In this document: positions 671 through 60,654 of the stretch, piece after piece
Position numbering within the stretch: position 1 is the first letter of the stretch
Layout: every line of letters begins with the position of its first letter
IMG/VR virus record: IMGVR_UViG_3300046004_000626
Length of the DNA: 64,000 bases
Strand: one strand, 5' to 3'
From: an uncultured virus (IMG/VR IMGVR_UViG_3300046004_000626)
Taxonomy: Duplodnaviria > Heunggongvirae > Uroviricota > Caudoviricetes
The notes under the pieces: generated by a model
What the model was told of the DNA's origin: nothing
Database searches by the model: none
The model's input: only the letters and a program-made list of their open reading frames with translations
Translations under genes and position numbers: made by a program

Positions 671-982
671 ATGGCAATTTCTAACACCTTATTAACAACA
701 GTGGTATCAAACGTATATGTCAGTTCAGGCAATACTGTAGTATCAGTTATGTACTTTTGCAACACAGATGCTACTGCTAAAACATTTGATTTATATGCAG
801 TGCCTAGCGGTACAACAACAATTAACAGTGACGTACAAATTTACAAAAGTGTTCAAATACAAAGTAATGATACTTTTGTTGTTGATATGGAAAAAATTGT
901 ATTAGCCAACGGTGATACATTGCGAGCCGCAGCATCAGCAAATTCAGCAATAACAGCAACAGTTAGTTACGTAGGAATGTAA
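671..982 (+). CDS. small virion structural protein
   Basis: ATG 671 after AGGA; beta-rich 103 aa, abuts the next ORF in a structural operon. Confidence 0.6.
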   Translation: MAISNTLLTTVVSNVYVSSGNTVVSVMYFCNTDATAKTFDLYAVPSGTTTINSDVQIYKSVQIQSNDTFVVDMEKIVLANGDTLRAAASANSAITATVSYVGM

Positions 983-1399
983 ATGGGACGCTTACTTAAA
1001 AATACAGTATTTAAAACAGGTAGCTATGCATTAGGTGTGCCAGTTGGATCAAGTTCAATTGGGCCAGATGTGCCAGTTGTAGGGCAAACTCGTTATAATA
1101 CTTCAACAGGCAAATTAGAATTCTATAATAGTAGTGTATGGAACGCAGTAGCTAAAGAAGGCGATGTTACTATTACTAAAGACACCCTAGCTGGTGATAA
1201 TATAGTTTCTGATTTTACTATGTCTAAAACGTATAATTCTGGACAAGAGGCACAGGTATTGGTATTTTTAAATACTGTATATCAAAATCCTGGCATTAAC
1301 TACACATTCAATGGAACAACAAATATACATTTTACAAGTGTGCCTACTGGTGGCGCAGTTATATTAGTACTACACAATATTGCAAGCACTACAGTATAG
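983..1399 (+). CDS. virion structural protein
   Basis: GQTRYNTSTGKLEFYNSSVW and VFLNTVYQNP motifs recur in the 1438 and 11822 proteins. Confidence 0.6.
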   Translation: MGRLLKNTVFKTGSYALGVPVGSSSIGPDVPVVGQTRYNTSTGKLEFYNSSVWNAVAKEGDVTITKDTLAGDNIVSDFTMSKTYNSGQEAQVLVFLNTVYQNPGINYTFNGTTNIHFTSVPTGGAVILVLHNIASTTV

Positions 1400-1437
1400 C
1401 CTGTTCCTTAGCTAAATATTAAAATAGGAGTTAGTTA

Positions 1438-4400
1438 ATGGCAATAGGTCGTGTACCCGGGGCAGCACTGTTAGGAAATCTAGATAGACAAGGTCTTGAT
1501 CTAGGCTTCACTACCAACAGTGACACATTATTACAGTTAGATTTTACTAACTTTCGTCTTGGTATCAACACGGCATCTCCCCAAGAATCATTAGAAGTTA
1601 CTGGGAACATTCTTGTAACAACCGGCAATATATTAACCTCAGCTAATTTAACATACGATATTGGTGCGACTAATAAATATTGGCGCAATATCTATAGCGG
1701 AAACCTTTATACTAGCAATATTACCAGTACAAATATCACTGGTACGTTAACCACAGCTATACAAACTAATATAACCACAGTAGGTACGTTAGGCAACCTA
1801 TCAGTCACTGGTAATATTGATGCAGGCAATATAATAAGTAATATCACCGGCAATGTAATTGGATCGGCAACTACGGTAACTGCATCAGCACAGCCAAATA
1901 TAACATCACTGGGTATATTAACTGCTCTCGATGTAACAGGTAATGTTGGTGCAGGCAATGTTAGTGGTACATATTTAACTGGTACATTACTAACTCAAGC
2001 ACAACCATACATAACATCAACAGGTATATTAACTGCTCTCGATGTAACAGGTAATGTTGGTGCAGGCAATGTCAGTGGTACATACTTAACAGGTACATTG
2101 CTAACAAGTGCTCAACCAAACATCACAACATTATCCGGTGTTACTAGCATCGGTGCAAGTGGAAGTACAGTATTAACCGGCACACTAGCGACTAATGCAC
2201 AACCTAATGTTACATCTTTAGGTACATTAATATCACTAGACGTAACAGGTAATGTTGGCGCAGGCAATGTTAGTGGTACATATCTAACTGGCACACTATT
2301 GACGGCCAGCCAAACTAATGTTACATCATTGGGCACATTATCAGCATTAACAGTCAGTGGAAATATCATTGCGCAAAGCTCTATTGTACCAACAAGTAAC
2401 ATTGCTGGTAATATTGGTTATGCCGATACATGGTGGAGTGCAGTATACGCTAATACAATTAATGCAACTAATTTAAATGGCACGATACTTACAACTAATC
2501 AACCTTATATTTCTAATTTAGGAAATATTACAGTTGATAGCATTTCCATTGGTGGAAATATTAGTATTACTGGTAATGTTAACGGAACAGACATTACTGC
2601 TAACACCATAACAGCCAACACAATCACTGGCACATTACTTACAGGCAATCAGCCTAACATAACAAATTTAAGCAACATCTCAGTTGATAGCATTTCTATT
2701 AGTGGAAATTTAGGTATCACAGGAACTACAACAGCCGGTATTATCAATGCTGATGAGATCTATGAAAGTAATATTCGTGTTGTAACTCAAGAAACTACAA
2801 TTACAGTTACTGGTGATGCTACTGGCAGTGGTAATGTTTCAAATATTGCATTAACTTTAGCAGACACTGGTGTTACTGCAGGCACATATGGTGCTGCAGA
2901 TGATGAAACATGGGATAGAATTCCTAAAATTACTGTAGACAGCAAAGGCCGCATTACAAATATTGCTAACATTACTCTTACTCAAGTCGGTAATGTAACC
3001 TTTACTGATACAACTATATCAACAGTGGCTAACTTAACAATAGCACCAACTAATGGTTATATTTTTGCTAATAGTAGTGTTATATCTGACGTTGCTGATC
3101 CAGTTAGCGCACAGGATGTAGTTACATTAAACTATCTAACAACAACATTAAGTGGTGCTGCAAATAGCCTAGTCATTGGTGATAGTCTAGTAAATCTAAT
3201 AGATGAAACTAATAATAGTAGATTAGAAATTACCCTTGATTCAGAATTAATTGCAAATATAACAGCTAATGCATCAACATTTTACAATACTGTTAATATT
3301 GGTAACATATCAATAGTTGATAACACAATTTCATCAAGTGGAAATATATACATCGATGCACAGAATACAGGCATTGTACAAATTGTTGGATCCGATGCAC
3401 TGGGCATTCCTGTTGGAAATGTAATTACTCGTCCTCTAAATCCTGAGATAGGGTACATACGTTTTAACACTGACAATGATGCTGTGGAATACTGGACTGG
3501 CGCAGAATGGACATACCCGGGCGCAGCTACAATTACATCAGAAACTGTCTACCCTGATGGACTAACTGCAAGCTATAATTTAACAACCTCGGCTACTCCA
3601 GACGGGTTGCTAGTTAGTATCAACGGTACAATGCAACAACCATTTACATCATATAATATGTCTGGTAATGTAATAACATTCACAGAAACTCCGCAAGATA
3701 CTGATATTATTGAAATTCGACATATTGTTGCTGGCGCAGTTTCTATAGGATCACTGACCTACGGACCTACGTCTAAAGTAGAATTATCTACTGGTAATGT
3801 CAATATTACCGGTAATTTAATACCAACAGCAAATGTCACATATGATCTGGGTTCTGATTCAATGTGGTGGCGCGACCTGTACATGAGTGGCAGTACTATT
3901 CATATTGGTGGTGCACTGCTTAAAGTAGTCGACAATGCATTGAGTTTTACTCCTGCGGGTAGCCCTACTCCGATTAATCTAACATCAGATGTTGATCCGA
4001 CTATACTTATTGCAAATACCACGCAGGTCAAAGCAACTGATGACTTTGTAAATGTTTCTATTGCCGGCGGCAATGTAGGTAAATTTGGCAGTGATGGGTT
4101 AACGATCACAGGAAATGTTAGTGCAGACTACATCATAGGTGATGGCAGTCAACTAACCGGCTTGCCAGCAGGGTATACTGACACAAATGTAGCGGCATAC
4201 TTACCATCTTATACAGGAAACATAAGTTCATTAACCACAGCCAACACAGCAATGAAAGGCTATGTTGATGAGCAGATTACCACTGTTACTAATTCAGTCA
4301 CCGGTGCTAATGCTGCAATAGTTACAGCCAACACAGCAATGAAAGATTATGTTGATGCAGCCAATACTATACAATCAAATGAAATTACAGCCATTAGTAA

Positions 4401-51672: not shown

Positions 51673-53091
51673 ATGCGCGAATTTATTAACCTTATTGACA
51701 ATCTTTTTGAAGTAACTATATCTAAATACGGCCCCGGTGAACAGTTTCTCATTAGTGATAGTATACACGGACAAAAATTTTCTGCGGAATTATCTCGACA
51801 GGGAATTGACACCGGTGGTTATATTGAATTGATTGATCCCGCTACAGTATCCGAGTTTGATGCTACACTACAACTTGGTCGAGGGCAGGATCAATATGCT
51901 TTTAAAAATGACAAGGGCCAAACATGGCTAGTAGTTGGTAGCAATTCGGCTATTCAAAATCCTTTAGTACATTATACAGCTTCAGGCGCCGAAAAACCTA
52001 AAGTAGCCAATAAAGGTGAAATTGCCGAGGGCATCCTGGGCGCCGCTATGTTTGCTAAATTTACCAAACGTCGAGGTAATGAAAACATAGCAACAGTTAC
52101 ACCTGATGATATTGCAAGTATTTTAAGTCAATTAAAACTGACCGGAGAAGATACATATCAAGTTACTGTAAATGATGCAAATAGTCAAATTTCAGATACT
52201 ATTTCTTTTATACTTAAATTAAAAACTGGTCCGTATAAAGATCTAATGGATCCTGCAAAACGCAGTTTGGTTACTAGCGAGTTTTTAAGTGCAGCTGCGT
52301 ATGTTAACAGTCCAATGGCTGAACGCTATAGTAAATATTTTTATCTAAACGGCAAAGCAGATGAAATTAATATAGTAGCAGATGGCGCCGCCAGTGAAAC
52401 TGATAAAAAAACAGATGTATGGGTTGGAGTGAAAGAAACCAGCGGGCAAATGCGCTATTTAAGACTTAACACTAGTCTTAAAATTGGTGGAATTAAACAA
52501 TTTGGCCAAGTAGGCGGCGCTGATATGACGTCGATGATTAAATTATGGAATTACTTTGGTATCGACGTTAGTAAATATACTCAACAATTTAATACTTTAA
52601 ATAGAGAGAACCAATTTGAAGCGTTGGCCTACATTTATAAGTTAGTAACAGAAGAATTAGCTAGAAATTTAATGGGTGATAATGATACCAAAGAAGCACA
52701 ATTTGTTGATATCTTAGCACATGCTATTACTCATTTTGCTACATTAGGCGATCCTAGTGTAGAACTAGTCGACTTTAACAAAGGCGGTTTTAAAATTTTA
52801 CGATTTAAAAATCTTAGAGATAAATTAAGCAAAGTTAACTTAACAGCTACATATCTTGGCGGTAAAGCCAGACCAGAGATTATTATACACGACGTTACTA
52901 ATCCTAAACGTATATTATTGCATATACGAGTTAAGATTGAAACTTTAAAATCGGGGAATATCTATATAAGAAGCGTTATTGAAAAAGGTAAATTGCTTGA
53001 AGAAATAACTATGGTACAGCAACGTGCCTGGGATGATCAAAGCAGAGATCTAAGAAGTACTTCTATAAAAGTTCCCAGACAAAAACGTTGA
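51673..53091 (+). CDS. hypothetical late protein, possible PD-(D/E)xK fold
   Basis: TAAATA 4 nt before the ATG; NKGEIAE...KTDV...SLK. Confidence 0.5.
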   Translation: MREFINLIDNLFEVTISKYGPGEQFLISDSIHGQKFSAELSRQGIDTGGYIELIDPATVSEFDATLQLGRGQDQYAFKNDKGQTWLVVGSNSAIQNPLVHYTASGAEKPKVANKGEIAEGILGAAMFAKFTKRRGNENIATVTPDDIASILSQLKLTGEDTYQVTVNDANSQISDTISFILKLKTGPYKDLMDPAKRSLVTSEFLSAAAYVNSPMAERYSKYFYLNGKADEINIVADGAASETDKKTDVWVGVKETSGQMRYLRLNTSLKIGGIKQFGQVGGADMTSMIKLWNYFGIDVSKYTQQFNTLNRENQFEALAYIYKLVTEELARNLMGDNDTKEAQFVDILAHAITHFATLGDPSVELVDFNKGGFKILRFKNLRDKLSKVNLTATYLGGKARPEIIIHDVTNPKRILLHIRVKIETLKSGNIYIRSVIEKGKLLEEITMVQQRAWDDQSRDLRSTSIKVPRQKR

Positions 53092-53116
53092 CATCTAAGT
53101 AATCCTATGTTATAAT
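53088..53116 (+). promoter_or_regulatory. sigma70-type early promoter
   Basis: TTGACA-17-TATAAT with extended TG. Confidence 0.85.
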
Positions 53117-53147
53117 AGTATTTTAAATAATAACTTAGGTACATACT

Positions 53148-53417
53148 ATGTCAAAAAAGATAGCGTCAGTTGAAAAATACAACATTGATAACTGTGATGC
53201 CGTATTTGGTGGCAACCGATTCCAATTAATTTTAGCCGCAGGTGTACGTGGGCACGAAATTGCAAAGACTCGTGTTATTGCTGCACGCAATGCAGGATCA
53301 ACTACAGCGCAACCTAAATATGAAAATCTTCCTACTGTGCAGGCACTACTAGATGTTGAAGCAGGCACCTGTGGTGTAGAATATTTAACTAAAGTTGGCA
53401 AGCAAATAAGACAATAA
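53148..53417 (+). CDS. rpoZ: RNA polymerase omega subunit-like protein
   Basis: GNRFQLILAAGVRGHEI...PTVQALLDVEAG aligns with the omega consensus GNRFDLVLVAARRARQ...KxTVxALREIxxG. Confidence 0.75.
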   Translation: MSKKIASVEKYNIDNCDAVFGGNRFQLILAAGVRGHEIAKTRVIAARNAGSTTAQPKYENLPTVQALLDVEAGTCGVEYLTKVGKQIRQ

Positions 53418-53424
53418 TTTATCT

Positions 53425-53501
53425 GGGCCTTTAGCTCAGTTGGTTAGAGCGTCCGACTCATAATCGGAATGTCACTGGTTCAAGTCCAGTAAGGCCCACC
53501 A
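53425..53501 (+). tRNA. tRNA-Ile2(CAT)
   Basis: Cloverleaf, CAT anticodon, ileX-like acceptor and T arms, CCA. Confidence 0.85.
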
Positions 53502-53507
53502 AACACT

Positions 53508-53582
53508 CCGGTGTTAGTTAAATGGATATAACAGGGGATTTCTACTCCCTAGTTGGGGGTTCGATTCCCTCACGCCGGACCA
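53508..53582 (+). tRNA. tRNA-Arg(TCT)
   Basis: Anticodon arm GGGGA-TTTCTAC-TCCCT, CCA. Confidence 0.9.
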
Positions 53583-53605
53583 GTAATATAACATAAGGAA
53601 ATAAG

Positions 53606-53803
53606 ATGTCAGATTTGAATGAATACGATTACGAACAAGCAATGGCAGAGTTTTTAGCCAATGGCGGACAGATACAACAAATTGCCCGTGGTGTACAAAG
53701 TGAAACAGCAACAACTAACTTCTGGGGCGCACCGAAGAAGAAAGCCGCAGTAGAAGCAGTAACTGAACTTGGTACTGCTGGAATTGACGTAATTGACGAT
53801 TAA
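53606..53803 (+). CDS. small hypothetical protein
   Basis: 65 aa, TAAGGA RBS; EFLANGGQIQQI motif. Confidence 0.7.
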   Translation: MSDLNEYDYEQAMAEFLANGGQIQQIARGVQSETATTNFWGAPKKKAAVEAVTELGTAGIDVIDD

Positions 53804-53856
53804 CTTGGTATTTTATACCGTATTAAAAATAAAAGATAAATAAATTAACAAAGAGG

Positions 53857-53885
53857 TTGACAGTCTGATAAATAGACTGTATACT
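53857..53885 (+). promoter_or_regulatory. sigma70-type promoter with palindromic spacer containing TAAATA
   Basis: TTGACA-17-TATACT; ACAGTCT-GATAAAT-AGACTGT inverted repeat. Confidence 0.85.
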
Positions 53886-53928
53886 AGTTGTTATAGTAAC
53901 AAATTAATTAAAGGAATGCGAAAGCAAA

Positions 53929-54060
53929 ATGTTTAACCAGCTACATCAATTTACAATATCGAAACAAGTGTCAGCACTTGCCACGATGTCTTATTGGTCA
54001 GCGATTGAGACATTAGGCAATGATCGCACACCGAATAGTATCTATGGGGATCTTAGTTAA
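53929..54060 (+). CDS. putative attenuator leader peptide (43 aa)
   Basis: MFNQLHQFTISKQVSALATMSYWSAIETLGNDRTPNSIYGDLS*; AAGGA at 53911-53915; lies between promoter and terminator. Confidence 0.7.
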   Translation: MFNQLHQFTISKQVSALATMSYWSAIETLGNDRTPNSIYGDLS

Positions 54061-54101
54061 CGTTTATATATAATATAAGTGAATTTTAATTAAGAACCCT
54101 A
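54045..54101 (+). promoter_or_regulatory. antiterminator hairpin
   Basis: TGGGGATCTTAGTTAA (54045-54060) pairs with TTAATTAAGAACCCTA (54086-54101): one mismatch, two G-U pairs. Confidence 0.75.
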
Positions 54102-54133
54102 GAGCAGAAATGTTACTAGGGTTTTTTGTTTTT
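54093..54133 (+). terminator. intrinsic terminator (attenuator)
   Basis: AACCCTAG-AGCA-GAAA-TGTT-A-CTAGGGTT followed by TTTTGTTTTT. Confidence 0.9.
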
Positions 54134-54146
54134 AAGAAGACGAAAA

Positions 54147-54275
54147 ATGGATAAAAAAGAAATTGTTCAAAAGCCGACTCCAGAACAAAGGATAGTGGTA
54201 CTAGAACAAAAATTAGAAAGAGTAACAAAACTATTAACAGAAAATGCTAATCTTTTGAAAAAACTTTCTAAGTAG
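54147..54275 (+). CDS. small coiled-coil protein (42 aa)
   Basis: MDKKEIVQKPTPEQRIVVLEQKLERVTKLLTENANLLKKLSK*; weak RBS. Confidence 0.5.
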   Translation: MDKKEIVQKPTPEQRIVVLEQKLERVTKLLTENANLLKKLSK

Positions 54276-54282
54276 TAGCAGT

Positions 54283-54378
54283 ACGTGTTACGCGAAACGA
54301 GATCGCAGCCTGCACGTTAACTAGGCAAATGGGCGGACTAGAGGATGGCATGTTCTTATGTGAACAGAAAATTCTAGT
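54283..54378 (+). ncRNA. putative pseudoknotted structured RNA
   Basis: ACGTGT/GCACGT loop pairing; GCGA/TCGC, GCCT/AGGC, ACTAGAG/TTCTAGT and TGTTC/GAACA stems. Confidence 0.5.
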
Positions 54379-54461
54379 TATAATAAAGTACATTAATCGG
54401 CAACTAGGTCCCATGCAACGTGGACTATGTCTTAGGCGAGTAATTAGTGTGCTTTATTATA
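54379..54461 (+). ncRNA. putative structured RNA closed by a 19-bp stem
   Basis: TATAATAAAGTACATTAAT / ATTAGTGTGCTTTATTATA with two G-U pairs and a branched interior. Confidence 0.55.
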
Positions 54462-54484
54462 CGCATTCATATGAGTGCGGTTAA

Positions 54485-54562
54485 CTCTCGTTCGCCTAGT
54501 CTGGTATGGCACTTGCTTTGGGAGCAAGAAGAACGTAGGTTCGAATCCTACACGAGAGACCA
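54485..54562 (+). tRNA. tRNA-Pro(TGG)
   Basis: CTTGC-TTTGGGA-GCAAG, CCA. Confidence 0.9.
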
Positions 54563-54568
54563 ATTTAA

Positions 54569-54652
54569 GGGTGATGAGCAGCATTGGCGACTGCAGCAGA
54601 CTGTAAATCTGTGTCCACTGGAAACTAGGTTCGACTCCTAGATCACCCACCA
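54569..54652 (+). tRNA. tRNA-Tyr(GTA)
   Basis: GCAGA-CTGTAAA-TCTGT, long variable arm, CCA. Confidence 0.9.
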
Positions 54653-54657
54653 AGTTT

Positions 54658-54733
54658 GGGACGGTAGCTCATTTGGAAGAGCAAGATGCTTTTAACGTCG
54701 AGGTGGTGGGATCGTAGCCCACCCGTCCTACCA
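54658..54733 (+). tRNA. tRNA-Lys(TTT)
   Basis: GATG-CTTTTAA-CGTC; atypical T-loop ATCGTAG; CCA. Confidence 0.85.
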
Positions 54734-54735
54734 AT

Positions 54736-54810
54736 GTTGACTATAGTGTAGCGGCAACACTCAGGATTGTGATTCCTGCATTATGGGTTCGACCCCCATT
54801 AGTCAACCCA
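54736..54810 (+). tRNA. tRNA-His(GTG) copy 1
   Basis: CAGGA-TTGTGAT-TCCTG; encoded G-1:C73; CCA. Confidence 0.9.
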
Positions 54811-54821
54811 ACAAATTTTAA

Positions 54822-54896
54822 GGCCGATTCGTATAATGGTTATTACACGGGATTGTCCATCCTGCTACGAGAGTTCGATTCTCTCATCGGTCGCCA
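54822..54896 (+). tRNA. tRNA-Asp(GTC)
   Basis: CGGGA-TTGTCCA-TCCTG; G73; CCA. Confidence 0.9.
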
Positions 54897-54902
54897 AGTT
54901 AT

Positions 54903-54976
54903 TCCGGTGTAGTATAATGGCAGTGCGGCGGTCTCCAAAACCGTTAGTGGGGGTTCGATTCCCTCCACCGGAGCCA
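54903..54976 (+). tRNA. tRNA-Trp(CCA)
   Basis: GCGGT-CTCCAAA-ACCGT; CCA end. Confidence 0.9.
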
Positions 54977-54990
54977 GTTTCAAATAGTGG

Positions 54991-55019
54991 TTGACAGCAA
55001 ATATCAAAAATGCTACACT
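54991..55019 (+). promoter_or_regulatory. sigma70-type promoter inside the tRNA array
   Basis: TTGACA-17-TACACT with extended TG. Confidence 0.75.
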
Positions 55020-55044
55020 ATATAGATAGTAACAAATAAGTAAA

Positions 55045-55190
55045 TGGAAGAAAGCCGTAACAATATGTATTCGAGGTTAGGAGAGTACGGCAAACCGTCC
55101 AAGGGTAGCTGATGCCTGTGGTGAAACTCCACCGTTGAAATCAGTCATGATTCTGCACATGATAACAGGCCTGTACTGGCCGCAGAACTT
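55045..55190 (+). ncRNA. putative multi-stem structured RNA
   Basis: GCCGTA/TACGGC, GCTGAT/ATCAGT, GTGG-TGAAACT-CCAC and TTCTGC/GCAGAA stems. Confidence 0.4.
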
Positions 55191-55194
55191 TTAT

Positions 55195-55269
55195 CGCGGG
55201 GTGGGGAAGTGGCAACCCGTCGGGCTCATAACCCGAAGATCGGCAGTTCGAATCTGTCCTCCGCAACCA
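55195..55269 (+). tRNA. initiator tRNA-fMet(CAT)
   Basis: C1:A72 mismatch, GGG/CCC anticodon stem, CCA. Confidence 0.95.
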
Positions 55270-55285
55270 ATATAGGAGAAGTAAC

Positions 55286-55447
55286 ATGGCAGTGAAAAAA
55301 GCAAATCCAATGCAGACACGCACAGGTAAACCACGTTTAGGTCCATTAAACCTAACACAATTAAATACCATGTTAGAAAAGACTAGTAAGAAAAAGGATC
55401 AAGCAAAGATCCGTAGTCGTATTAGAATATTAGAAGCACGTAAGTAA
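55286..55447 (+). CDS. small highly basic protein (53 aa)
   Basis: AGGAGA RBS; MAVKKANPMQTRTGKPRLGPLNLTQLNTMLEKTSKKKDQAKIRSRIRILEARK*. Confidence 0.75.
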   Translation: MAVKKANPMQTRTGKPRLGPLNLTQLNTMLEKTSKKKDQAKIRSRIRILEARK

Positions 55448-55458
55448 AAGTTTTAACC

Positions 55459-55543
55459 GCCGGCTTGCGCAGAGTGGGATTGCACCTGACTTGTAATCAG
55501 GCTTCGTAAGATAGAGAGTGTTCGATTCACTCAGCCGGCACCA
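55459..55543 (+). tRNA. tRNA-Thr(TGT), atypical long variable region
   Basis: CCTGA-CTTGTAA-TCAGG; GCCGGCT/AGCCGGC acceptor; 85 nt; CCA. Confidence 0.8.
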
Positions 55544-55548
55544 GTAAT

Positions 55549-55623
55549 GCAGCTATCGTCTATCGGTTAGGACATCGGGTTTTCATCCCGGCAAGCGGGG
55601 TTCGATTCCCCGTAGCTGTACCA
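55549..55623 (+). tRNA. tRNA-Glu(TTC)
   Basis: TCGGG-TTTTCAT-CCCGG; CCA. Confidence 0.9.
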
Positions 55624-55630
55624 GTAATAT

Positions 55631-55715
55631 GCCTCTGTGGTGGAATTGGTATACACGCTGGTCTTAGAAGCCGGTGCTTAACAGCGTGAGAGTTCGAGTC
55701 TCTCCTAAGGCACCA
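55631..55715 (+). tRNA. tRNA-Leu(TAG)
   Basis: CTGGT-CTTAGAA-GCCGG; two acceptor-stem mismatches; CCA. Confidence 0.85.
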
Positions 55716-55722
55716 GTAATAT

Positions 55723-55807
55723 GCGAGTGTGGTGAAATTGGTATACACAAGGGACTTAAAATCCCTCGCCGCAGGGCATGTCGGTTCAAGTCCGACCATT
55801 CGCACCA
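55723..55807 (+). tRNA. tRNA-Leu(TAA)
   Basis: AGGGA-CTTAAAA-TCCCT; CCA. Confidence 0.9.
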
Positions 55808-55811
55808 ACAT

Positions 55812-55885
55812 GCGGGATTAGTTTAATGGCAAAACTGGAGTTTTCCAAACTTCTGTCATCAGTTCGATTCTGATATCCCGCTCCA
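55812..55885 (+). tRNA. tRNA-Gly(TCC)
   Basis: GGAGT-TTTCCAA-ACTTC; U73; CCA. Confidence 0.9.
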
Positions 55886-55898
55886 AACACTAGCTTTA

Positions 55899-56093
55899 CA
55901 CTTTGCGCTTTATCGAAAGTGGGTAATTGGCAATACCATAGCGCCAAGGCACACACGATGGTCTAGACCATGCCACAAGTCCCATTGCCGGGAGCCTTGA
56001 AAGTATCGTGGGTTATTTGTTGTTATATCCAAAAGATAACAGCTGGACAGGGTAACTACTCAGTTCTGGGCTAGGTGGTGCTAGTAGCAGAAC
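55899..56093 (+). ncRNA. putative double-pseudoknot structured RNA
   Basis: CACTTT/AAAGTG stem whose loop GCGCT pairs with AGCGC; TGTTAT/ATAACA stem whose loop TCCA pairs with TGGA; GTTCTG/CAGAAC stem. Confidence 0.5.
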
Positions 56094-56113
56094 ACTTACA
56101 CTAAGACTATTAT

Positions 56114-57145
56114 ATGAATCCAAAAAAATCAAATCCTTACCCGGAACTCGACACGTTGATATCAGACCAGGTTGATTTGGTTAGTAATTATCATGGACGA
56201 TATAATAATAAAACAACAAAAAAATATATAATTTATTCATGTCTAGGTGAAGCTACTAGAAATGATCAAATTGAAAACATGTTAAAACGCTATCAACATT
56301 GTCGAGTTGCTATAGTTACCACAAGAGATTATCCCGAAGAGTTCAGTCAAACTTATGATTGCAAGTTTTTTAAAATACCATCGGCCTATGCATACTATAC
56401 AACAGAGATGCCGCAGGTACCAGTTAACTTCGATAGAACATTTGAAAAACTATTATTAAGTTTAAACAATCGTGCCGCGTGGCCAAGGCAAGCGTTATAT
56501 CAGTTTATGTTGAAATTTAATCTATTAGATCGGTGTTACTTTAGTTATTTGATGCAGGATCGTTTTGGTGTTAACGATAGTAAAACTATATATAATACTC
56601 TAAACGATACAATCGGCAATGGTAAACGATGGTATAACTTAGATTTAGATATGGAACAGGCCTATCAAAAATTACCATATAAAATAGATAATTTTGTTAA
56701 TAATGATTGGGGTCCAGGAAACATCGAGTATTACGAAAAAAGTTTTTGTTCCTTTGTCAATGAAACATATATAAGCGAAAACTATAATGTATTTTTTACA
56801 GAAAAAACTATGAAACCATTGGCATACGGACATCCGATGTTATTGTTTAGCAGTGCTGGTGCACTAGCAGAATTAAAAAAATTAGGATTTGAAACATATA
56901 GTTCTATATTTGATGAGAGTTATGATAGTGTTGATGTGCCTCAACTAAGATTTGAGCTATTACTTAAACAATTACTTGATCTTTTTAACCAATCACAGGG
57001 AACATTAAATTCAATGTATACAAAAATTAAACCTGTATTGGAATATAATCATAATTACTTTTGGAACGGATTACATCAAAAATACCTCAATGATGTTGCC
57101 CATGTTCGAGAACAAATCAGTGATTATTTTAATCACAATATATAG
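56114..57145 (+). CDS. glycosyltransferase-like protein (ET...TEK family), paralogue 3
   Basis: FVNET...FFTEK...GHPM...GFETY...DESYD. Confidence 0.5.
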   Translation: MNPKKSNPYPELDTLISDQVDLVSNYHGRYNNKTTKKYIIYSCLGEATRNDQIENMLKRYQHCRVAIVTTRDYPEEFSQTYDCKFFKIPSAYAYYTTEMPQVPVNFDRTFEKLLLSLNNRAAWPRQALYQFMLKFNLLDRCYFSYLMQDRFGVNDSKTIYNTLNDTIGNGKRWYNLDLDMEQAYQKLPYKIDNFVNNDWGPGNIEYYEKSFCSFVNETYISENYNVFFTEKTMKPLAYGHPMLLFSSAGALAELKKLGFETYSSIFDESYDSVDVPQLRFELLLKQLLDLFNQSQGTLNSMYTKIKPVLEYNHNYFWNGLHQKYLNDVAHVREQISDYFNHNI

Positions 57146-57166
57146 CATTAAATATTAAAGTTTTAC

Positions 57167-57242
57167 GGGGGTGTAGCTCAGTTGGGAGAGCGCATGCTTT
57201 GCAAGCATGATGTCGCAAGTTCGATCCTTGTCACCTCCACCA
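57167..57242 (+). tRNA. tRNA-Ala(TGC)
   Basis: CATGC-TTTGCAA-GCATG; G3:U70; CCA. Confidence 0.95.
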
Positions 57243-57253
57243 AAATTTTAGTA

Positions 57254-57301
57254 GTATCGAACTTGCGACTAAGTATGTTCATATAACAGAGAGTTCGATA
57301 T
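57254..57301 (+). promoter_or_regulatory. hairpin occluding the HNH start, with TAAGTA late-promoter variant in the loop
   Basis: GTATCGAACTT pairs with GAGTTCGATAT (overlaps ATG 57300); TAAGTA at 57270-57275. Confidence 0.7.
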
Positions 57302-57941
57302 GAAAATTTGTCCTAAATGTAAAAAAGAGCACTCACTAAACGGAATATTTTGTAGTAGAAGTTGTGCTAATAGTAGAGTGTTTAGTGATGAGTCAAAAGA
57401 AAAGAAAAGATTAGCAAATACTAAATTTTATAATTCGTTATCCGATGAAGGAAAGCGGCTTAGATTTGAACAAAATAAATCTAAATATGATTATGAAGAT
57501 CAACAACGAAGAGCAAAAGAAACTAAGTTGTTAAAATCATGGAATCGTCCGCACGAAGAAATGAGTAGAGAAGCTCTTAAACGTCGAGTATTGCATGAAA
57601 GTAATTATCAATGTAAAGAATGTGGAATAGGTGAAGAGTGGCAGGGTAAACAGTTAGTTTTAGAATTAGATCACATTGATGGTAACAATCAAAACAACAA
57701 GCCTGAAAACTTAAGAATATTGTGTCCTAATTGTCATAGTCAAACACACACATTTAGAGCAAGAAATATTAAAATCAATAGAATACATGTTGATTTAGTA
57801 GAATTAGAAAAAAATTTAAGAATCTACATGTATGCAACACCTGCGTTACGGGCTATGGGATTATCTAATAGTGCTAAACGTATCAGGCTTGCAAACGAAA
57901 TTTTAGATAAGATCAATTCCGGTCAAGCAAACACGGTGTAG
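57300..57941 (+). CDS. free-standing HNH homing endonuclease
   Basis: LELDHIDGNNQNNKPENLRILCPNCHSQT; N-terminal CPKC...FCSRSC Zn finger; located in the tRNA array. Confidence 0.9.
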   Translation: MKICPKCKKEHSLNGIFCSRSCANSRVFSDESKEKKRLANTKFYNSLSDEGKRLRFEQNKSKYDYEDQQRRAKETKLLKSWNRPHEEMSREALKRRVLHESNYQCKECGIGEEWQGKQLVLELDHIDGNNQNNKPENLRILCPNCHSQTHTFRARNIKINRIHVDLVELEKNLRIYMYATPALRAMGLSNSAKRIRLANEILDKINSGQANTV

Positions 57942-57993
57942 GCGGTGGACTGTTAATCCATGAAGGTTGGTTCGATTCCAACGACCGGAGCCA
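57918..57993 (+). tRNA. tRNA-Asn(GTT)
   Basis: GTGGA-CTGTTAA-TCCAT; G73; CCA; overlaps the HNH 3' end. Confidence 0.85.
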
Positions 57994-58021
57994 CATTTTA
58001 TACGGATAGTGTCATTTTTAT

Positions 58022-58096
58022 ACCCGATTAGCTCAGTGGTAGAGCAATCGCTTGATAAGCGATAGGTGAGTGGATCGTTACCACTATCGGGTACCA
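58022..58096 (+). tRNA. tRNA-Ile(GAT)
   Basis: ATCGC-TTGATAA-GCGAT; atypical T-loop ATCGTTA; CCA. Confidence 0.9.
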
Positions 58097-58232
58097 AGTA
58101 TCTTTAACCGGTATGGGTTTAGGGGCAAACAGCGACCCGTAGTATTTTAACAAAACCCTAGTATTAAAAAGCTGTCAGACAAGGATAAGATAACAGCGCA
58201 AGCTGAAGACTAATGCGGTGACTTGTCAACTC

Positions 58233-58320
58233 GGAAGTTACTGAGGTCGGCTCCTCACACAGTCTTGAAAACTGTAGTTACCAGGAATGGTAAATCGTTC
58301 GATGCGATTAACTTCCGCCA
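58233..58320 (+). tRNA. tRNA-Ser(TGA), non-canonical (8/4-type) fold
   Basis: ACAGT-CTTGAAA-ACTGT; acceptor GGAAGTTA/TAACTTCC; long V-arm; G73; CCA. Confidence 0.8.
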
Positions 58321-58325
58321 AACAC

Positions 58326-58354
58326 TTGACACTGTTGATACACGGTGTTATAAT
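58326..58354 (+). promoter_or_regulatory. sigma70-type promoter inside the tRNA array
   Basis: TTGACA-17-TATAAT with extended TG. Confidence 0.85.
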
Positions 58355-58374
58355 AGTTGTATAGTAAGAAATTA

Positions 58375-58464
58375 GGAGAGTTGGCCGAGTGGTCGAAGGC
58401 AGCGGCTTGCTAAGCCGTCCTCCCAGTAATGGGAGCATAGGTTCGAATCCTATACTCTCCGCCA
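58375..58464 (+). tRNA. tRNA-Ser(GCT)
   Basis: GCGGC-TTGCTAA-GCCGT; long V-arm; CCA. Confidence 0.95.
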
Positions 58465-58646
58465 GAAGCTAATCGAGGACACCTCTTAACAATGTGCAAC
58501 ATCAAGCGTGGATTTACACGTGAATCCCATAGACGTATGGGACTACGATTTTCCGGGAGGACAACTCCCAACTCATTCTTATATCAAATTGCCAGATACC
58601 TAAAGTATCATGTATATAAATAGGGCTGATAGCATAAAGGAATTAT

Positions 58647-59108
58647 ATGATTACAGATGAACAAATTAAGAAAGACATACATGATTGGGCAGTCTATGTA
58701 GGCTTGCCGCAAAAAAGTTTAAGCGGACTATCAGTTTGCCCGTTTGCTAAAGCTAGTATGGATTTATACGAAGTACAAATTGTTGATAATGTTACATCAA
58801 TTGTTCCTCCTAACAAAGACTTTGAATTAATTGTATATGTAATTAGATCTGCAATTACAGTTGAAGAATTAAATAAAGCCTGTGCAACATTGAAAGAACA
58901 AAACCCATTAATAGAATACCTGCCAGATCATAGCACAAGAAATACTTATATCGGCGAAGCACAAACCAACAATGGCAAACATAATTTAATATTGTGTCAG
59001 CCAATGGATAAGCTGTTAGCGGCAAGAAATAAAATAGCTAAAACTAATTATTATAAATTTTGGGATGCCGAATATCTCAATGAAATATTTGGTAAAAGCA
59101 TTAATTAA
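58647..59108 (+). CDS. hypothetical protein (CPFA motif)
   Basis: 153 aa; TATAAATA and AAGGA upstream. Confidence 0.65.
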   Translation: MITDEQIKKDIHDWAVYVGLPQKSLSGLSVCPFAKASMDLYEVQIVDNVTSIVPPNKDFELIVYVIRSAITVEELNKACATLKEQNPLIEYLPDHSTRNTYIGEAQTNNGKHNLILCQPMDKLLAARNKIAKTNYYKFWDAEYLNEIFGKSIN

Positions 59109-59123
59109 CTACAGGAGCATTAT

Positions 59124-59228
59124 ATGTTATTTCTAATTTTAAAGAGTGCAGTAGTTGTTACACTAGCATTTTGCGCATTGATTTTAGAAGTATTTGTATT
59201 AGTGTGGATAGCAAACAAACTAAAATAG
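59124..59228 (+). CDS. small membrane peptide (34 aa)
   Basis: AGGAG RBS; MLFLILKSAVVVTLAFCALILEVFVLVWIANKLK*. Confidence 0.6.
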   Translation: MLFLILKSAVVVTLAFCALILEVFVLVWIANKLK

Positions 59229-59235
59229 TTTAATT

Positions 59236-59309
59236 GCTCTTATAGTATAAAGGCATTACGCTACATTGGTAATGTAGTAACTCCGGTTCGATACCGGGTA
59301 GGAGCACCA
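59236..59309 (+). tRNA. tRNA-Thr(GGT)
   Basis: CTACA-TTGGTAA-TGTAG; CCA. Confidence 0.9.
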
Positions 59310-59314
59310 GTAAT

Positions 59315-59390
59315 ACCCTCTTCGCCAAGCTGGTAAGGCAACAGGTTTTGATCCTGTCATTCGGTGGTTCGAGTCCATCAGGGGGTGCCA
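59315..59390 (+). tRNA. tRNA-Gln(TTG)
   Basis: ACAGG-TTTTGAT-CCTGT; CCA. Confidence 0.9.
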
Positions 59391-59396
59391 AACAAT

Positions 59397-59473
59397 GTAT
59401 GTGTGTAGCTGAATGGATAAGCTGCGGATTGCAACCCCGTATTATGCAGGTTCGACCCCTGTCACATACTCCA
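59397..59473 (+). tRNA. tRNA-Cys(GCA)
   Basis: Loop TTGCAAC; GTATGTG/CACATAC acceptor; U73; CCA. Confidence 0.85.
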
Positions 59474-59483
59474 CTTTCAATAT

Positions 59484-59560
59484 AGAGATGTAGCATAGTG
59501 GCCTAATGCACTTGCTCCATACGCAAGCTACCGTAGGTTCAAATCCTACCATCTCTACCA
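59484..59560 (+). tRNA. tRNA-Met(CAT), elongator type, with C33
   Basis: CTTGC-TCCATAC-GCAAG; CCA. Confidence 0.8.
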
Positions 59561-59561
59561 C

Positions 59562-59640
59562 GCCCCCATAGCTCAGTCTGGACTAGAGCATAACGCTACG
59601 AACGTTAGTGTCGGAGGTTCGAATCCTTCTGGGGGCTCCA
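59562..59640 (+). tRNA. tRNA-Arg(ACG)
   Basis: TAACG-CTACGAA-CGTTA; CCA. Confidence 0.9.
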
Positions 59641-59649
59641 AATAAAATG

Positions 59650-59713
59650 TTACTGAGCAGTAATATTTGCCGTCAAACCCGGCTAAATCAGTTCAAATAT
59701 TACTGAGCAGTAA
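59650..59713. repeat. two copies of the palindrome TTACTG-AG-CAGTAA, 50 bp apart
   Basis: Identical 14-mers at 59650-59663 and 59700-59713. Confidence 0.85.
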
Positions 59714-59722
59714 GATTAAAAT

Positions 59723-59796
59723 GCGGATATAGTATAGTGGTAATACACGACCTTGCCAAGGTTGAATCACGAGTTCGAACCTCGTTATCCGCTCCA
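59723..59796 (+). tRNA. tRNA-Gly(GCC)
   Basis: CGACC-TTGCCAA-GGTTG; U73; CCA. Confidence 0.9.
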
Positions 59797-59803
59797 GTTC
59801 GAT

Positions 59804-59880
59804 GGTAACCATAGTGTAAAGGTTTAGCACCCGACTCTGTGAAAGTCGTAGAATGGGATCGTTACCCATTGGTTACCCCA
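59804..59880 (+). tRNA. tRNA-His(GTG) copy 2
   Basis: CGACT-CTGTGAA-AGTCG; encoded G-1:C73; T-loop ATCGTTA; CCA. Confidence 0.85.
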
Positions 59881-59881
59881 C

Positions 59882-59910
59882 TTGACATTTTGGTAGAATG
59901 ATAGTATAAT
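59882..59910 (+). promoter_or_regulatory. sigma70-type early promoter
   Basis: TTGACA-17-TATAAT, 6 nt before ATG 59917. Confidence 0.85.
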
Positions 59911-59916
59911 ACACAC

Positions 59917-60165
59917 ATGGATAAAGAACAACAATTAGCCTGGGACATACTAAGTACGCCTAACAATGCGGACTTTAAGGAGTATCGCAGGACGCATCGG
60001 ATGACGTGGTTAACTAAAACACGCAAAGTCTTATTGATCGGTGACATGGATACAGCACACATCATAAGTTGCATTAATATGTTAGAACGATTAGAACAAC
60101 AATATACATTAGCCTATGGTGGCTTAATTGATGAACTAAGAAAACGTGGAGAGCATTATGAGTAA
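59917..60165 (+). CDS. hypothetical protein
   Basis: 82 aa; DMDTAHIISCINML...ELRKR motif. Confidence 0.65.
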   Translation: MDKEQQLAWDILSTPNNADFKEYRRTHRMTWLTKTRKVLLIGDMDTAHIISCINMLERLEQQYTLAYGGLIDELRKRGEHYE

Positions 60166-60499
60166 ATTTGAATGGGACTTTTTTAGTAAAGTACCCGAGC
60201 ACACTCGTGGTGCTTTAGAACGTTACTTCTTATATGCTTTTGAACCTGGCAGTTTTGTAAAAGCTGTTCTTTGTAATGATTTATATAGCAGTGTAGCACG
60301 TGCTGATACATGGAACAAACAAGCATTAGCAGATATTGTCTCTTGGATTGCTAAAAACGCACCAGAAGGTAGTTGGGGACATGAAGACTACTACAAAGAA
60401 TGGATCAACAAAGGCCCAGCGTATGAAAAGTTTCAAAAGAGTCTAGTATGGGAAACTTTAAACGCAGACCATACTGAAATAAAGGAACAAGATTGGTGA
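60158..60499 (+). CDS. hypothetical protein
   Basis: PGSFVKAVLCNDL...AP-GSWG motif; GGAG RBS. Confidence 0.7.
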   Translation: MSKFEWDFFSKVPEHTRGALERYFLYAFEPGSFVKAVLCNDLYSSVARADTWNKQALADIVSWIAKNAPEGSWGHEDYYKEWINKGPAYEKFQKSLVWETLNADHTEIKEQDW

Positions 60500-60654
60500 A
60501 ACAGAAACCAAAATGGGTCGAGACTCGTGAACGCCTTAACCAATTGGGCCAAGAACCTGTAGTCTTTATCGGCAAAATGGGAGTTGCTGGTGTTATAGAT
60601 GGTAAGTTGCCCAATGGTGAAGTGTATCATAGGAATATTAGGAAGAAACGATGA
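60496..60654 (+). CDS. small hypothetical protein (52 aa)
   Basis: GTG start overlapping the upstream TGA; fills the gap exactly; KMGVAGVIDGKLPNG. Confidence 0.55.
   Translation: MKQKPKWVETRERLNQLGQEPVVFIGKMGVAGVIDGKLPNGEVYHRNIRKKR

Follow-up and report, generated by a model that had tools for sequence, protein, structure and literature searches.

The window analysed here is a stretch of 64,000 nucleotides from an uncultured virus of the Caudoviricetes (IMG/VR record IMGVR_UViG_3300046004_000626), and its subject is a leader region, made up of a promoter, a short open reading frame (ORF) and an intrinsic terminator, which stands ahead of a block of phage tRNA genes and may act as a transcription attenuator. 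The window comes from one contig of 177,658 bp, and because this contig carries genes for a tail sheath, a large terminase and a UvsX-like recombinase, its source is taken to be a large myovirus. The phage genome has 26 tRNA genes, all on the + strand, from 53425 to 59880. The other features described below are likewise on the + strand, and positions are those of the window.

The leader is preceded by a sigma-70-type promoter, TTGACA-17-TATACT (53857..53885), which matches the consensus at 11 of 12 positions and whose -35 and -10 hexamers are retained in all 17 aligned distinct sequences. Directly upstream of the -35 hexamer is an A+T-rich block (53825..53853) that is nearly invariant in the aligned relatives and may serve as an UP-like element. 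The conserved 5' leader (53886..53928) contains a Shine-Dalgarno-like AAGGA at 53911-53915, 13 nt ahead of the ATG; relatives L029 and L013 have a purine-rich motif at the usual spacing in its place. The leader ORF (53929..54060) has 43 codons, with a conserved core and a variable tail. The terminator (54096..54133) consists of an 11-bp stem with one bulge (54096-54122), a GAAA loop and TTTTTTGTTTTT. On this strand of the 177,658-bp genome there are 20 candidates, of which this one, at -14.5 kcal/mol, belongs to the top three in strength; no other strong intrinsic terminator occurs within the tRNA region. A promoter, a 43-codon ORF and a strong terminator had been named in an original prediction made from the sequence alone, and all three are present.

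The leader region is carried by approximately 40 IMG/VR and metagenome contigs, and the public runs that hold it are labelled as freshwater or lake metagenomes. The phage lacks close kin among GenBank phages: no match to the DNA of the leader region was found there, nor did tblastn find a match to the leader peptide, and a neighbouring 494-aa protein has distant relatives only. Relatives were gathered through a neighbouring 65-aa ORF, which retrieved 23 loci, 22 of them with the leader region at a DNA identity of 71-96%; extra loci were then added by pattern searches. The resulting set holds 23 distinct ORFs, of which 21 distinct sequences extend to the terminator. Two of the pattern searches used the leader-core motif itself, which introduces an ascertainment effect into the synonymous-site invariance of the core. 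A profile search of 1.84 billion representative proteins with the leader peptide returned 15 clusters, 14 of them true peptides of 39-66 aa. No paralogue of the leader peptide was found within the same genome.

Two hairpins predicted to compete in the leader RNA

The terminator is faced by a second, longer hairpin that would act as an antiterminator. Its 5' arm (54042..54060) is formed by the last six codons and the TAA stop, and its 3' arm (54086..54104) has the bases 54096-54104 in common with the 5' arm of the terminator; the A+U-rich apical part between the two (54061..54085) varies in sequence among variants, with the hairpin retained. The original prediction held that the end of the ORF pairs over 16 nt with the terminator 5' arm, making the two hairpins mutually exclusive. 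Sixteen of the 18 positions of 54043-54060 do pair with 54086-54103, but ten of these pairs fall in the flank 54086-54095. At equilibrium the antiterminator is predicted to out-compete the terminator in three variants of the leader (B, C and D), but competition is weak in the window's own copy, for which mutual exclusion is only partly true. In the window only GGGG at 54046-49 with CCCU at 54097-54100, across an A.A mismatch, plus a few further pairs, compete with the terminator.

Four variants can be told apart by the tail of the ORF, which reads NSIYGDLS in variant A, to which the window belongs, HNEGLS or NRKGLS in variant B, SNCIRVREGWDGY in variant C, and GFVGVLS or GCEGVLS in variant D. 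These tails are unrelated, and all four set a G-run opposite the AACCC of the terminator. The reading frame of the run differs from one variant to the next (TAT GGG GAT, GAG GGT, AGG GTT, GGG GTC), which argues for a constraint on the RNA rather than on the protein. Despite the four different endings, each of the 21 sequences extending as far as the terminator has the 5' arm of the competing hairpin within its ORF.

Both helices have been maintained by paired substitutions. At one position of the antiterminator the window has a G.U pair where L057 and L058 have G-C and five other sequences A-U, and in variant D the U-A next to the mismatch has become C-G with the mismatch closed, giving a continuous base helix of 13 bp. 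Across the 21-sequence alignment 89.9% of antiterminator cells are paired and four pairs have changed on both sides, a covariation score reached by none of 500 shuffles; sliding the partner by one column reduces the paired fraction to 61% and 67%. For the terminator, 91.9% of cells are paired, five pairs have changed on both sides, and again 0 of 500 shuffles reach the score. An ORF, an antiterminator and a terminator ahead of tRNA genes thus recur in related phages, as the original prediction would have it, and on the evidence of these alignments the alternative pairing is real and conserved.

Alternatively, the ORF could be a small early gene of the ordinary kind that ends in a terminator of its own, and the long hairpin spanning the stop codon could stabilise the 3' end or serve as a processing site for RNase III. 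The tRNAs would then come from constitutive leaky read-through, or from unrecognised phage promoters, and the overlap with the terminator would have no regulatory meaning. The 17-21 near-continuous base pairs seen in several relatives are of the size of an RNase III substrate. The confinement of the 5' arm to the ORF through four unrelated tails is left unexplained by such a gene. We consider this explanation rather unlikely; further evidence on either side of it is met below.

Predicted response of the terminator to a ribosome

Competition between the hairpins was expressed as P(terminator), the equilibrium probability of the complete terminator once its stem has just been transcribed, and set against sets of 200 dinucleotide-shuffled ORF tails, which gave a median P(terminator) of 0.68-0.79. 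The five sequences of variant B lie at 0.16-0.32, the three of variant C at 0.000-0.001 and the two of variant D at 0.05 and 0.14, and in these variants a value as low as that of the real tail is given by just 0-6 of 200 shuffles. In the 11 sequences of variant A, P(terminator) is 0.60-0.79, the window standing at 0.72. The energy of the nascent hairpin also stands out, with 0-6 of 500 shuffles as low. An ordinary small gene does not account for a hairpin that abolishes the terminator at equilibrium in variants B, C and D.

A ribosome was modelled as an unpaired footprint of 27 nt on the whole leader. Placed at the stop codon, it raises P(terminator) from 0.03-0.17 to 0.67-0.79 in variant B and from 0.13-0.16 to 0.79 in variant D. 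Of the three sequences of variant C, one goes from 0.016 to 0.56. Eight of the ten sequences of variants B, C and D thus respond to the modelled ribosome, reaching 0.56-0.79. With the ribosome at codon 10, the antiterminated state persists in all sequences of these variants. The polarity proposed originally, in which a ribosome at the stop means OFF, is accordingly the one predicted in B, D and one C sequence, but in the variant to which the window belongs the effect is weak. By this modelling the family is predicted to encode a switch of that polarity, of which the window carries a weak allele biased to termination.

A more specific rule, in which a stall at the conserved proline of the leader peptide frees the antiterminator arm, was considered and rejected as a general one. 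In variant B a ribosome with the proline codon in its P site restores the terminator (0.68-0.79), and three representatives have no proline at this place.

The leader reading frame

The ORF is open from its ATG in all 23 distinct sequences; of the two alternative frames, one is open in 2 of the 23 and the other in none. All seven insertion or deletion events read in the nucleotide alignment of the ORF are multiples of three, and the untranslated 5' leader and the loops carry gaps of 1, 5 and 7 nt. Up to codon 35, the variable codon columns number 18, 19 and 22 at the first, second and third positions, and pairwise comparisons give nonsynonymous to synonymous changes of 16 to 4, 10 to 2, 18 to 2 and 8 to 0. 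From these counts it follows that the amino acids at variable positions are hardly constrained. In sequence comparison, then, the leader ORF looks like a regulatory frame rather than a protein with a sequence-dependent job. Such near-neutral drift of the peptide within a kept frame is also left unaccounted for if the ORF is simply a small early gene.

The leader peptide has no match in Pfam or PHROG and no usable match in the Atlas. An Xre-type helix-turn-helix (HTH) small repressor was considered and set aside: Pfam HTH_19 was matched at E 0.26 in just one of the 14 family members scanned, and AlphaFold2 gives a single helix over residues 2-30 with a mean pLDDT of 65.5.

Against this background of drift, part of the peptide is conserved. 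Among 30 family members the Y, W, A and I of the core (YW.AI) are invariant, and S, E, D, R and P are at least 90% conserved; the proline is absent from three representatives, and D or R is altered in others. Residues after the core proline vary freely. The core block TGG TCA GCG ATT ... GAT CGC ACA CCG is unchanged at all three codon positions, an invariance that is partly ascertainment yet also holds in the set retrieved via the neighbouring gene. These frozen codons coincide with the arms of a hairpin inside the ORF (53995..54033), in which TGGTCAGCGATT (53995-54006) pairs with GATCGCACACCG (54022-54033) around a variable loop. The RNAalifold consensus of 22 sequences has ten pairs and is paired in 22 of 22; the changes are one-sided and pair-preserving only, GC to GU in four sequences and UG to UA in two. 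A role for this hairpin in pausing the polymerase until the ribosome arrives, or in timing more generally, is speculative.

These features could also point to a sensor of a more specific kind. The invariant core, either as a nascent chain in the tunnel or as the hairpin at 53995-54033, would stall the ribosome or pause the polymerase in the manner of TnaC or SecM, in answer to a particular ligand, factor or condition, and would so set the choice between terminator and antiterminator. The invariant and frozen core, the hairpin in every sequence and the free drift of the remaining peptide are what such a sensor would leave behind. Yet the core proline is lacking in some family members and the aspartate or arginine is altered in others, the hairpin lacks pair changes on both sides and is to that extent unproven as a structure, and part of the synonymous-site invariance stems from the motif-based searches. 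In variant B, moreover, the antiterminator arm is already covered once the ribosome has the proline codon in its P site, and so a stall at that codon would not release it. A specific sensor is regarded as improbable.

Two further pairings involve the 5' leader. In the minimum-energy fold of the window, 53913-53937, which includes the Shine-Dalgarno sequence and the start region, pairs with the mid-ORF segment 54008-54033. L010 has a matching double change here (TGCGA/TCGCA to TACGA/TCGTA), but three others with CGT do not. In this folding model the pairing could restrict initiation to the first ribosome. The window fold also pairs TAGTAACA of the 5' leader (53894-53901) with TGTTACTA of the terminator 3' arm (54111-54118); this was taken as chance, the alignments being read as not keeping the pairing in relatives with other terminator loops.

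The downstream transcription unit

Beyond the terminator lies ORF2 (54147..54275), which encodes a coiled-coil-like product of 42 aa with no family match. Several relatives (e.g. L005/7, L013-15, L017-21) lack it, and in these the terminator abuts the next element, a structured RNA (54276..54484) upstream of tRNA-Pro that has no Rfam match. This RNA contains a long-range helix between 54378-54391 and 54447-54460, with compensatory changes in L202, and a conserved hairpin just before tRNA-Pro, in which AU has become UA in 2 of 14 sequences. The tRNA genes for Pro(UGG), Tyr(GUA), Lys(UUU), His(GUG), Asp(GUC) and Trp(CCA) follow at 54485..54976, and the next sigma-70-type promoter, TTGACA-17-TACACT, is at 54991..55019. 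The original prediction had listed a small ORF, two structured RNAs and these six tRNAs ahead of the next promoter; the ORF and the tRNAs stand, but the structured RNA is reported here as one element.

From 54134 to 54485 the + strand contains no promoter-like site with at least 9 of 12 matches. Two motifs resembling TATAAT, at 54378 and 54452, were considered as internal promoters and rejected, as they are the arms of the RNA helix that covaries in L202. A T-box was also looked for, and an Rfam scan of 52500-60500 with E up to 1 gave only tRNAs and spurious antisense matches.

The association with tRNA genes is general. They follow the leader in all 17 relatives scanned, tRNA-Pro(UGG) being first in 15, and among 13 loci with enough downstream sequence Lys and Asp are present in 13 and Tyr in 11.

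In L182, L185, L200, L202 and L203 an extra element of approximately 80 nt is found between the structured RNA and tRNA-Pro. Although its ends match and it includes a T-arm-like GGTTCGA(T/G)TCC, ARAGORN calls no tRNA in it.

Proposed attenuation at the leader

The account preferred here, with a probability of roughly 0.5, is that the leader is a ribosome-mediated transcription attenuator, controlling whether transcripts begun at an early sigma-70-type promoter extend into the structured RNA and the tRNA block. It builds on what is observed, namely the parts and their conservation, the covariation of both helices, the equilibrium switch predicted in relatives, and a frame that is kept with its residues free. 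To this we add, as inferences, that the ORF is translated, that its translation is coupled to transcription, and that the system responds to tRNA supply.

RNA polymerase would start at approximately 53892, the predicted site, and transcribe the 43-codon leader. The last leader codons (54042-54060) are able to pair with 54086-54104, a stretch that takes in nine bases at the start of the terminator stem. If the tail of the ORF is free of ribosome as this stretch emerges, the long hairpin would form, the terminator would not, and transcription would read through into ORF2, the structured RNA and the tRNAs. A ribosome that keeps pace and stands on the last codons or the stop would instead mask the 5' arm, so that the terminator forms and transcription ends. 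Slow or blocked translation of the leader would in this way raise transcription of the tRNA genes. As there is no other strong terminator in the region, transcription could possibly run further along the array.

A number of observations weigh against the attenuator, several of which come from the window itself. In the minimum-energy fold of the window, a 10-bp flank helix and the complete terminator coexist side by side. The P(terminator) values of variant A are like those of shuffled tails, 191 (the window), 88 and 41 of 200 shuffles being no higher than the real sequence, and a ribosome at the stop changes this variant little, the window moving from 0.54 to 0.72. In two of the three variant C sequences a ribosome at the stop does not restore the terminator (0.016 and 0.001), since their stop is part of the hairpin loop. 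When the sequestered bases of the terminator arm are counted in the nascent fold, 58-400 of 500 shuffles match the real sequence. A leader of this type is lacking from the four remaining promoter units of the tRNA region. Finally, metatranscriptome contigs, from three runs of one freshwater sample and one run of another study, bridge the terminator; these contigs give no transcript ends, strands or levels, and carry-over of DNA is possible. Both the bridging of the terminator in RNA libraries and the coexisting hairpins of the window, in which the terminator is not out-competed, are what a small early gene with leaky read-through would give.

The same contigs revealed a separate feature of the region. 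At 55886-56096, just 3' of tRNA-Gly(UCC), their depth is approximately 690-3100, versus 53-105 on the contigs of the leader and tRNAs, which suggests a very abundant RNA of approximately 200 nt; it has no Rfam match.

Amino-acid coverage and possible tRNA sensing

The leader peptide draws on almost the whole genetic code. It uses 19 of the 20 amino acids (no Cys) and 32 distinct codons, including three Ile and four Ser codons, and there is no run of a single amino acid, the commonest residue being Ser, at 6 of 43 across four codons. This composition agrees with the original prediction, as does the unusual codon diversity, since only 2.4% of 43-codon segments of the phage's own sequence reach 32 distinct codons; 6.7% of them reach 19 amino acids. 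An accompanying claim of many G/C-ending codons did not hold up: the G+C content at third positions (GC3) is 0.37, versus 0.29 +/- 0.09, and 18.5% of the phage's 43-codon segments are as high. The family as a whole has 30-35 distinct codons, versus 26.3 +/- 2.9.

Of 36 distinct family peptides of 39-66 aa, 24 use all 20 amino acids and 12 use 19. Segments of 41-48 residues from the phage's own proteins have on average 15.8-16.5 amino acids, 19 or more being reached in 5-13% and 20 in 0.7-2%. When alignment columns were shuffled, the finding of 19 or more in 30 of 30 sequences was never reproduced (mean 21.3; 0 of 2000), and among ten sequences at no more than 60% identity the observed coverage was reached in 8 of 2000. 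A null that keeps the changed positions and redraws the replacements has means of 17.4-19.2, versus the observed 19-20. Cysteine occurs in 11 different alignment columns and histidine in six, and lineages without the usual histidine carry one elsewhere, as read from the sequences.

Other results detract from the case for coverage. It is mostly inherited, the conserved 35-residue core already holding 19 amino acids. Under the changed-position null individual P values range from 0.013 to 1.0 with a Fisher combination of 0.003, the sequences not being independent. Cysteine is missing from 11 of the 36 family peptides and phenylalanine from one. Because the sequences are related, one histidine shift is an alignment effect and the core is inherited, the comparison offers moderate evidence for selection of amino-acid coverage beyond inheritance. 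Even so, a coverage of 19-20 amino acids is a further feature for which an ordinary small gene has no explanation.

With nearly all amino acids in the leader, the ribosome could be slowed whenever almost any one charged tRNA runs short, and a putative role for the leader as a general tRNA sensor is plausible and has comparative support from the relatives. Phage tRNA genes are now regarded as doing more than supplementing codon usage, and are also proposed to replace host tRNAs destroyed in infection or by defence nucleases (PMC11464382, PMC11555353, PMC10264068). The leader could accordingly be imagined as a pan-aminoacyl-tRNA sensor, in which depletion or cleavage of host tRNAs delays the pioneer ribosome, the antiterminator forms and the phage tRNAs are switched on as an inducible counter-defence. 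Pro, Tyr, Lys, His, Asp and Trp would be made first and the rest of the array by run-on. Induction could come in the late phase of infection or once an anticodon nuclease has struck, and tRNA supply would be driven by demand. We regard this proposal as unlikely and offer it tentatively; its counter-defence part derives solely from the identity of the downstream tRNAs, a further point on the negative side.

Neighbouring genes and possible factor-dependent read-through

Directly upstream of the leader promoter is the 65-aa ORF through which the relatives were gathered (53606-53803, kept in 23 related contigs). It matches the SutA RNA-polymerase-binding domain PF20661 with E 9.3e-8 and 31.8 bits, versus a cut-off of 29.3, and by this sequence match it would be a phage-encoded SutA-like protein within the tRNA region. 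An 89-aa ORF at 53148-53417 has a weak likeness to the RNA polymerase omega subunit (Rpb6), with E 0.0049, below the cut-off. It is placed behind a perfect consensus promoter (53088-53116) and ahead of tRNA-Met and tRNA-Arg. An HNH endonuclease gene (57300-57941) lies within the tRNA array between tRNA-Ala and tRNA-Asn.

Genes of this kind raise the question of whether read-through is set by a phage or host protein as a form of temporal control, for example by one of the small RNA-polymerase-binding proteins of the neighbourhood, with the leader ORF being incidental. The SutA match, and to a lesser degree the Rpb6 likeness, fit a terminator controlled in this way. However, SutA is not known to be an antiterminator, and control by a factor explains neither the conserved alternative pairing nor the retained reading frame; we consider it very improbable.

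Comparison with known systems

To our knowledge, next to nothing is established about how phages control their tRNA genes. In the full-text literature searched, which does not extend to subscription-only work such as the older T4 and T5 papers on the tRNA region, no description of an attenuator upstream of phage tRNA genes was found. The module is best read as a real, conserved regulatory element, an instance of leader-peptide attenuation of a kind not yet described for phage tRNAs. If the attenuation model is true, it would be the first regulatory logic proposed for phage tRNA genes, with feedback between tRNA supply and the movement of ribosomes. It would also extend attenuation from the codon run of one amino acid to a general sensing of translation through a leader that spans the whole code. 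The element is approximately 280 nt long and has natural variants from weak to strong, and it is a potential compact reporter of translation stress.

In its layout the leader resembles the enterobacterial trp, his, thr, ilv, leu and phe attenuators, which combine a short ORF close to the promoter with an intrinsic terminator and a second hairpin sharing the 5' arm of the terminator. In these amino-acid operons the 5' arm of the hairpin lies in or just past the end of the ORF, as it does here, and termination is promoted by a ribosome standing at the stop, as is predicted here; approximately 73 nt separate the stop from the end of the terminator, a spacing similar to that in trp. Unlike those attenuators, the phage leader has no codon run for one amino acid, with 19-20 amino acids present instead, and its cargo consists of tRNAs and a structured RNA, in a phage, with an antiterminator that is weak in the window. 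Nor was a pairing of the 1:2 type found here, and an absence of translation should therefore give read-through.

Other attenuators are closer in what they sense. Short leader ORFs that detect a slowing of translation and relieve an intrinsic terminator are also found ahead of antibiotic-resistance genes (ermK, bmrCD, vmlR, msrD/mef), where they act as ribosome-stalling attenuators (see PMC4335068). They differ in that drug-bound ribosomes stall at defined codons and the genes controlled confer resistance, whereas here tRNA genes lie downstream in a phage. T-box riboswitches also tie the choice between terminator and antiterminator to the status of tRNA, but do so through an RNA that binds tRNA; the putative sensor here is a translated ORF, and the region gave no T-box match.

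The pyrBI leader of E. coli contains an ORF without a regulatory codon run and reports how close the ribosome is to the polymerase. Its logic is the opposite of that predicted here. In pyrBI a close ribosome blocks the terminator hairpin and gives read-through, whereas in the phage leader the stop lies 36 nt before the stem and the outcome is reversed.

In the tRNA regions of phages T4 and T5, clusters of tRNA genes are interspersed with small ORFs, promoters and small stable RNAs. We know of no leader-peptide attenuator described for them. The present region is similar in having its tRNAs in several short transcription units among small ORFs and unidentified stable RNAs. A last comparison is with the arrest leaders SecM, TnaC and Erm, in which a motif is conserved up to the site of the stall and variable beyond it; the phage leader has a conserved core followed by free tails, but three representatives lack the core proline and its conservation extends to the nucleotide level as well.

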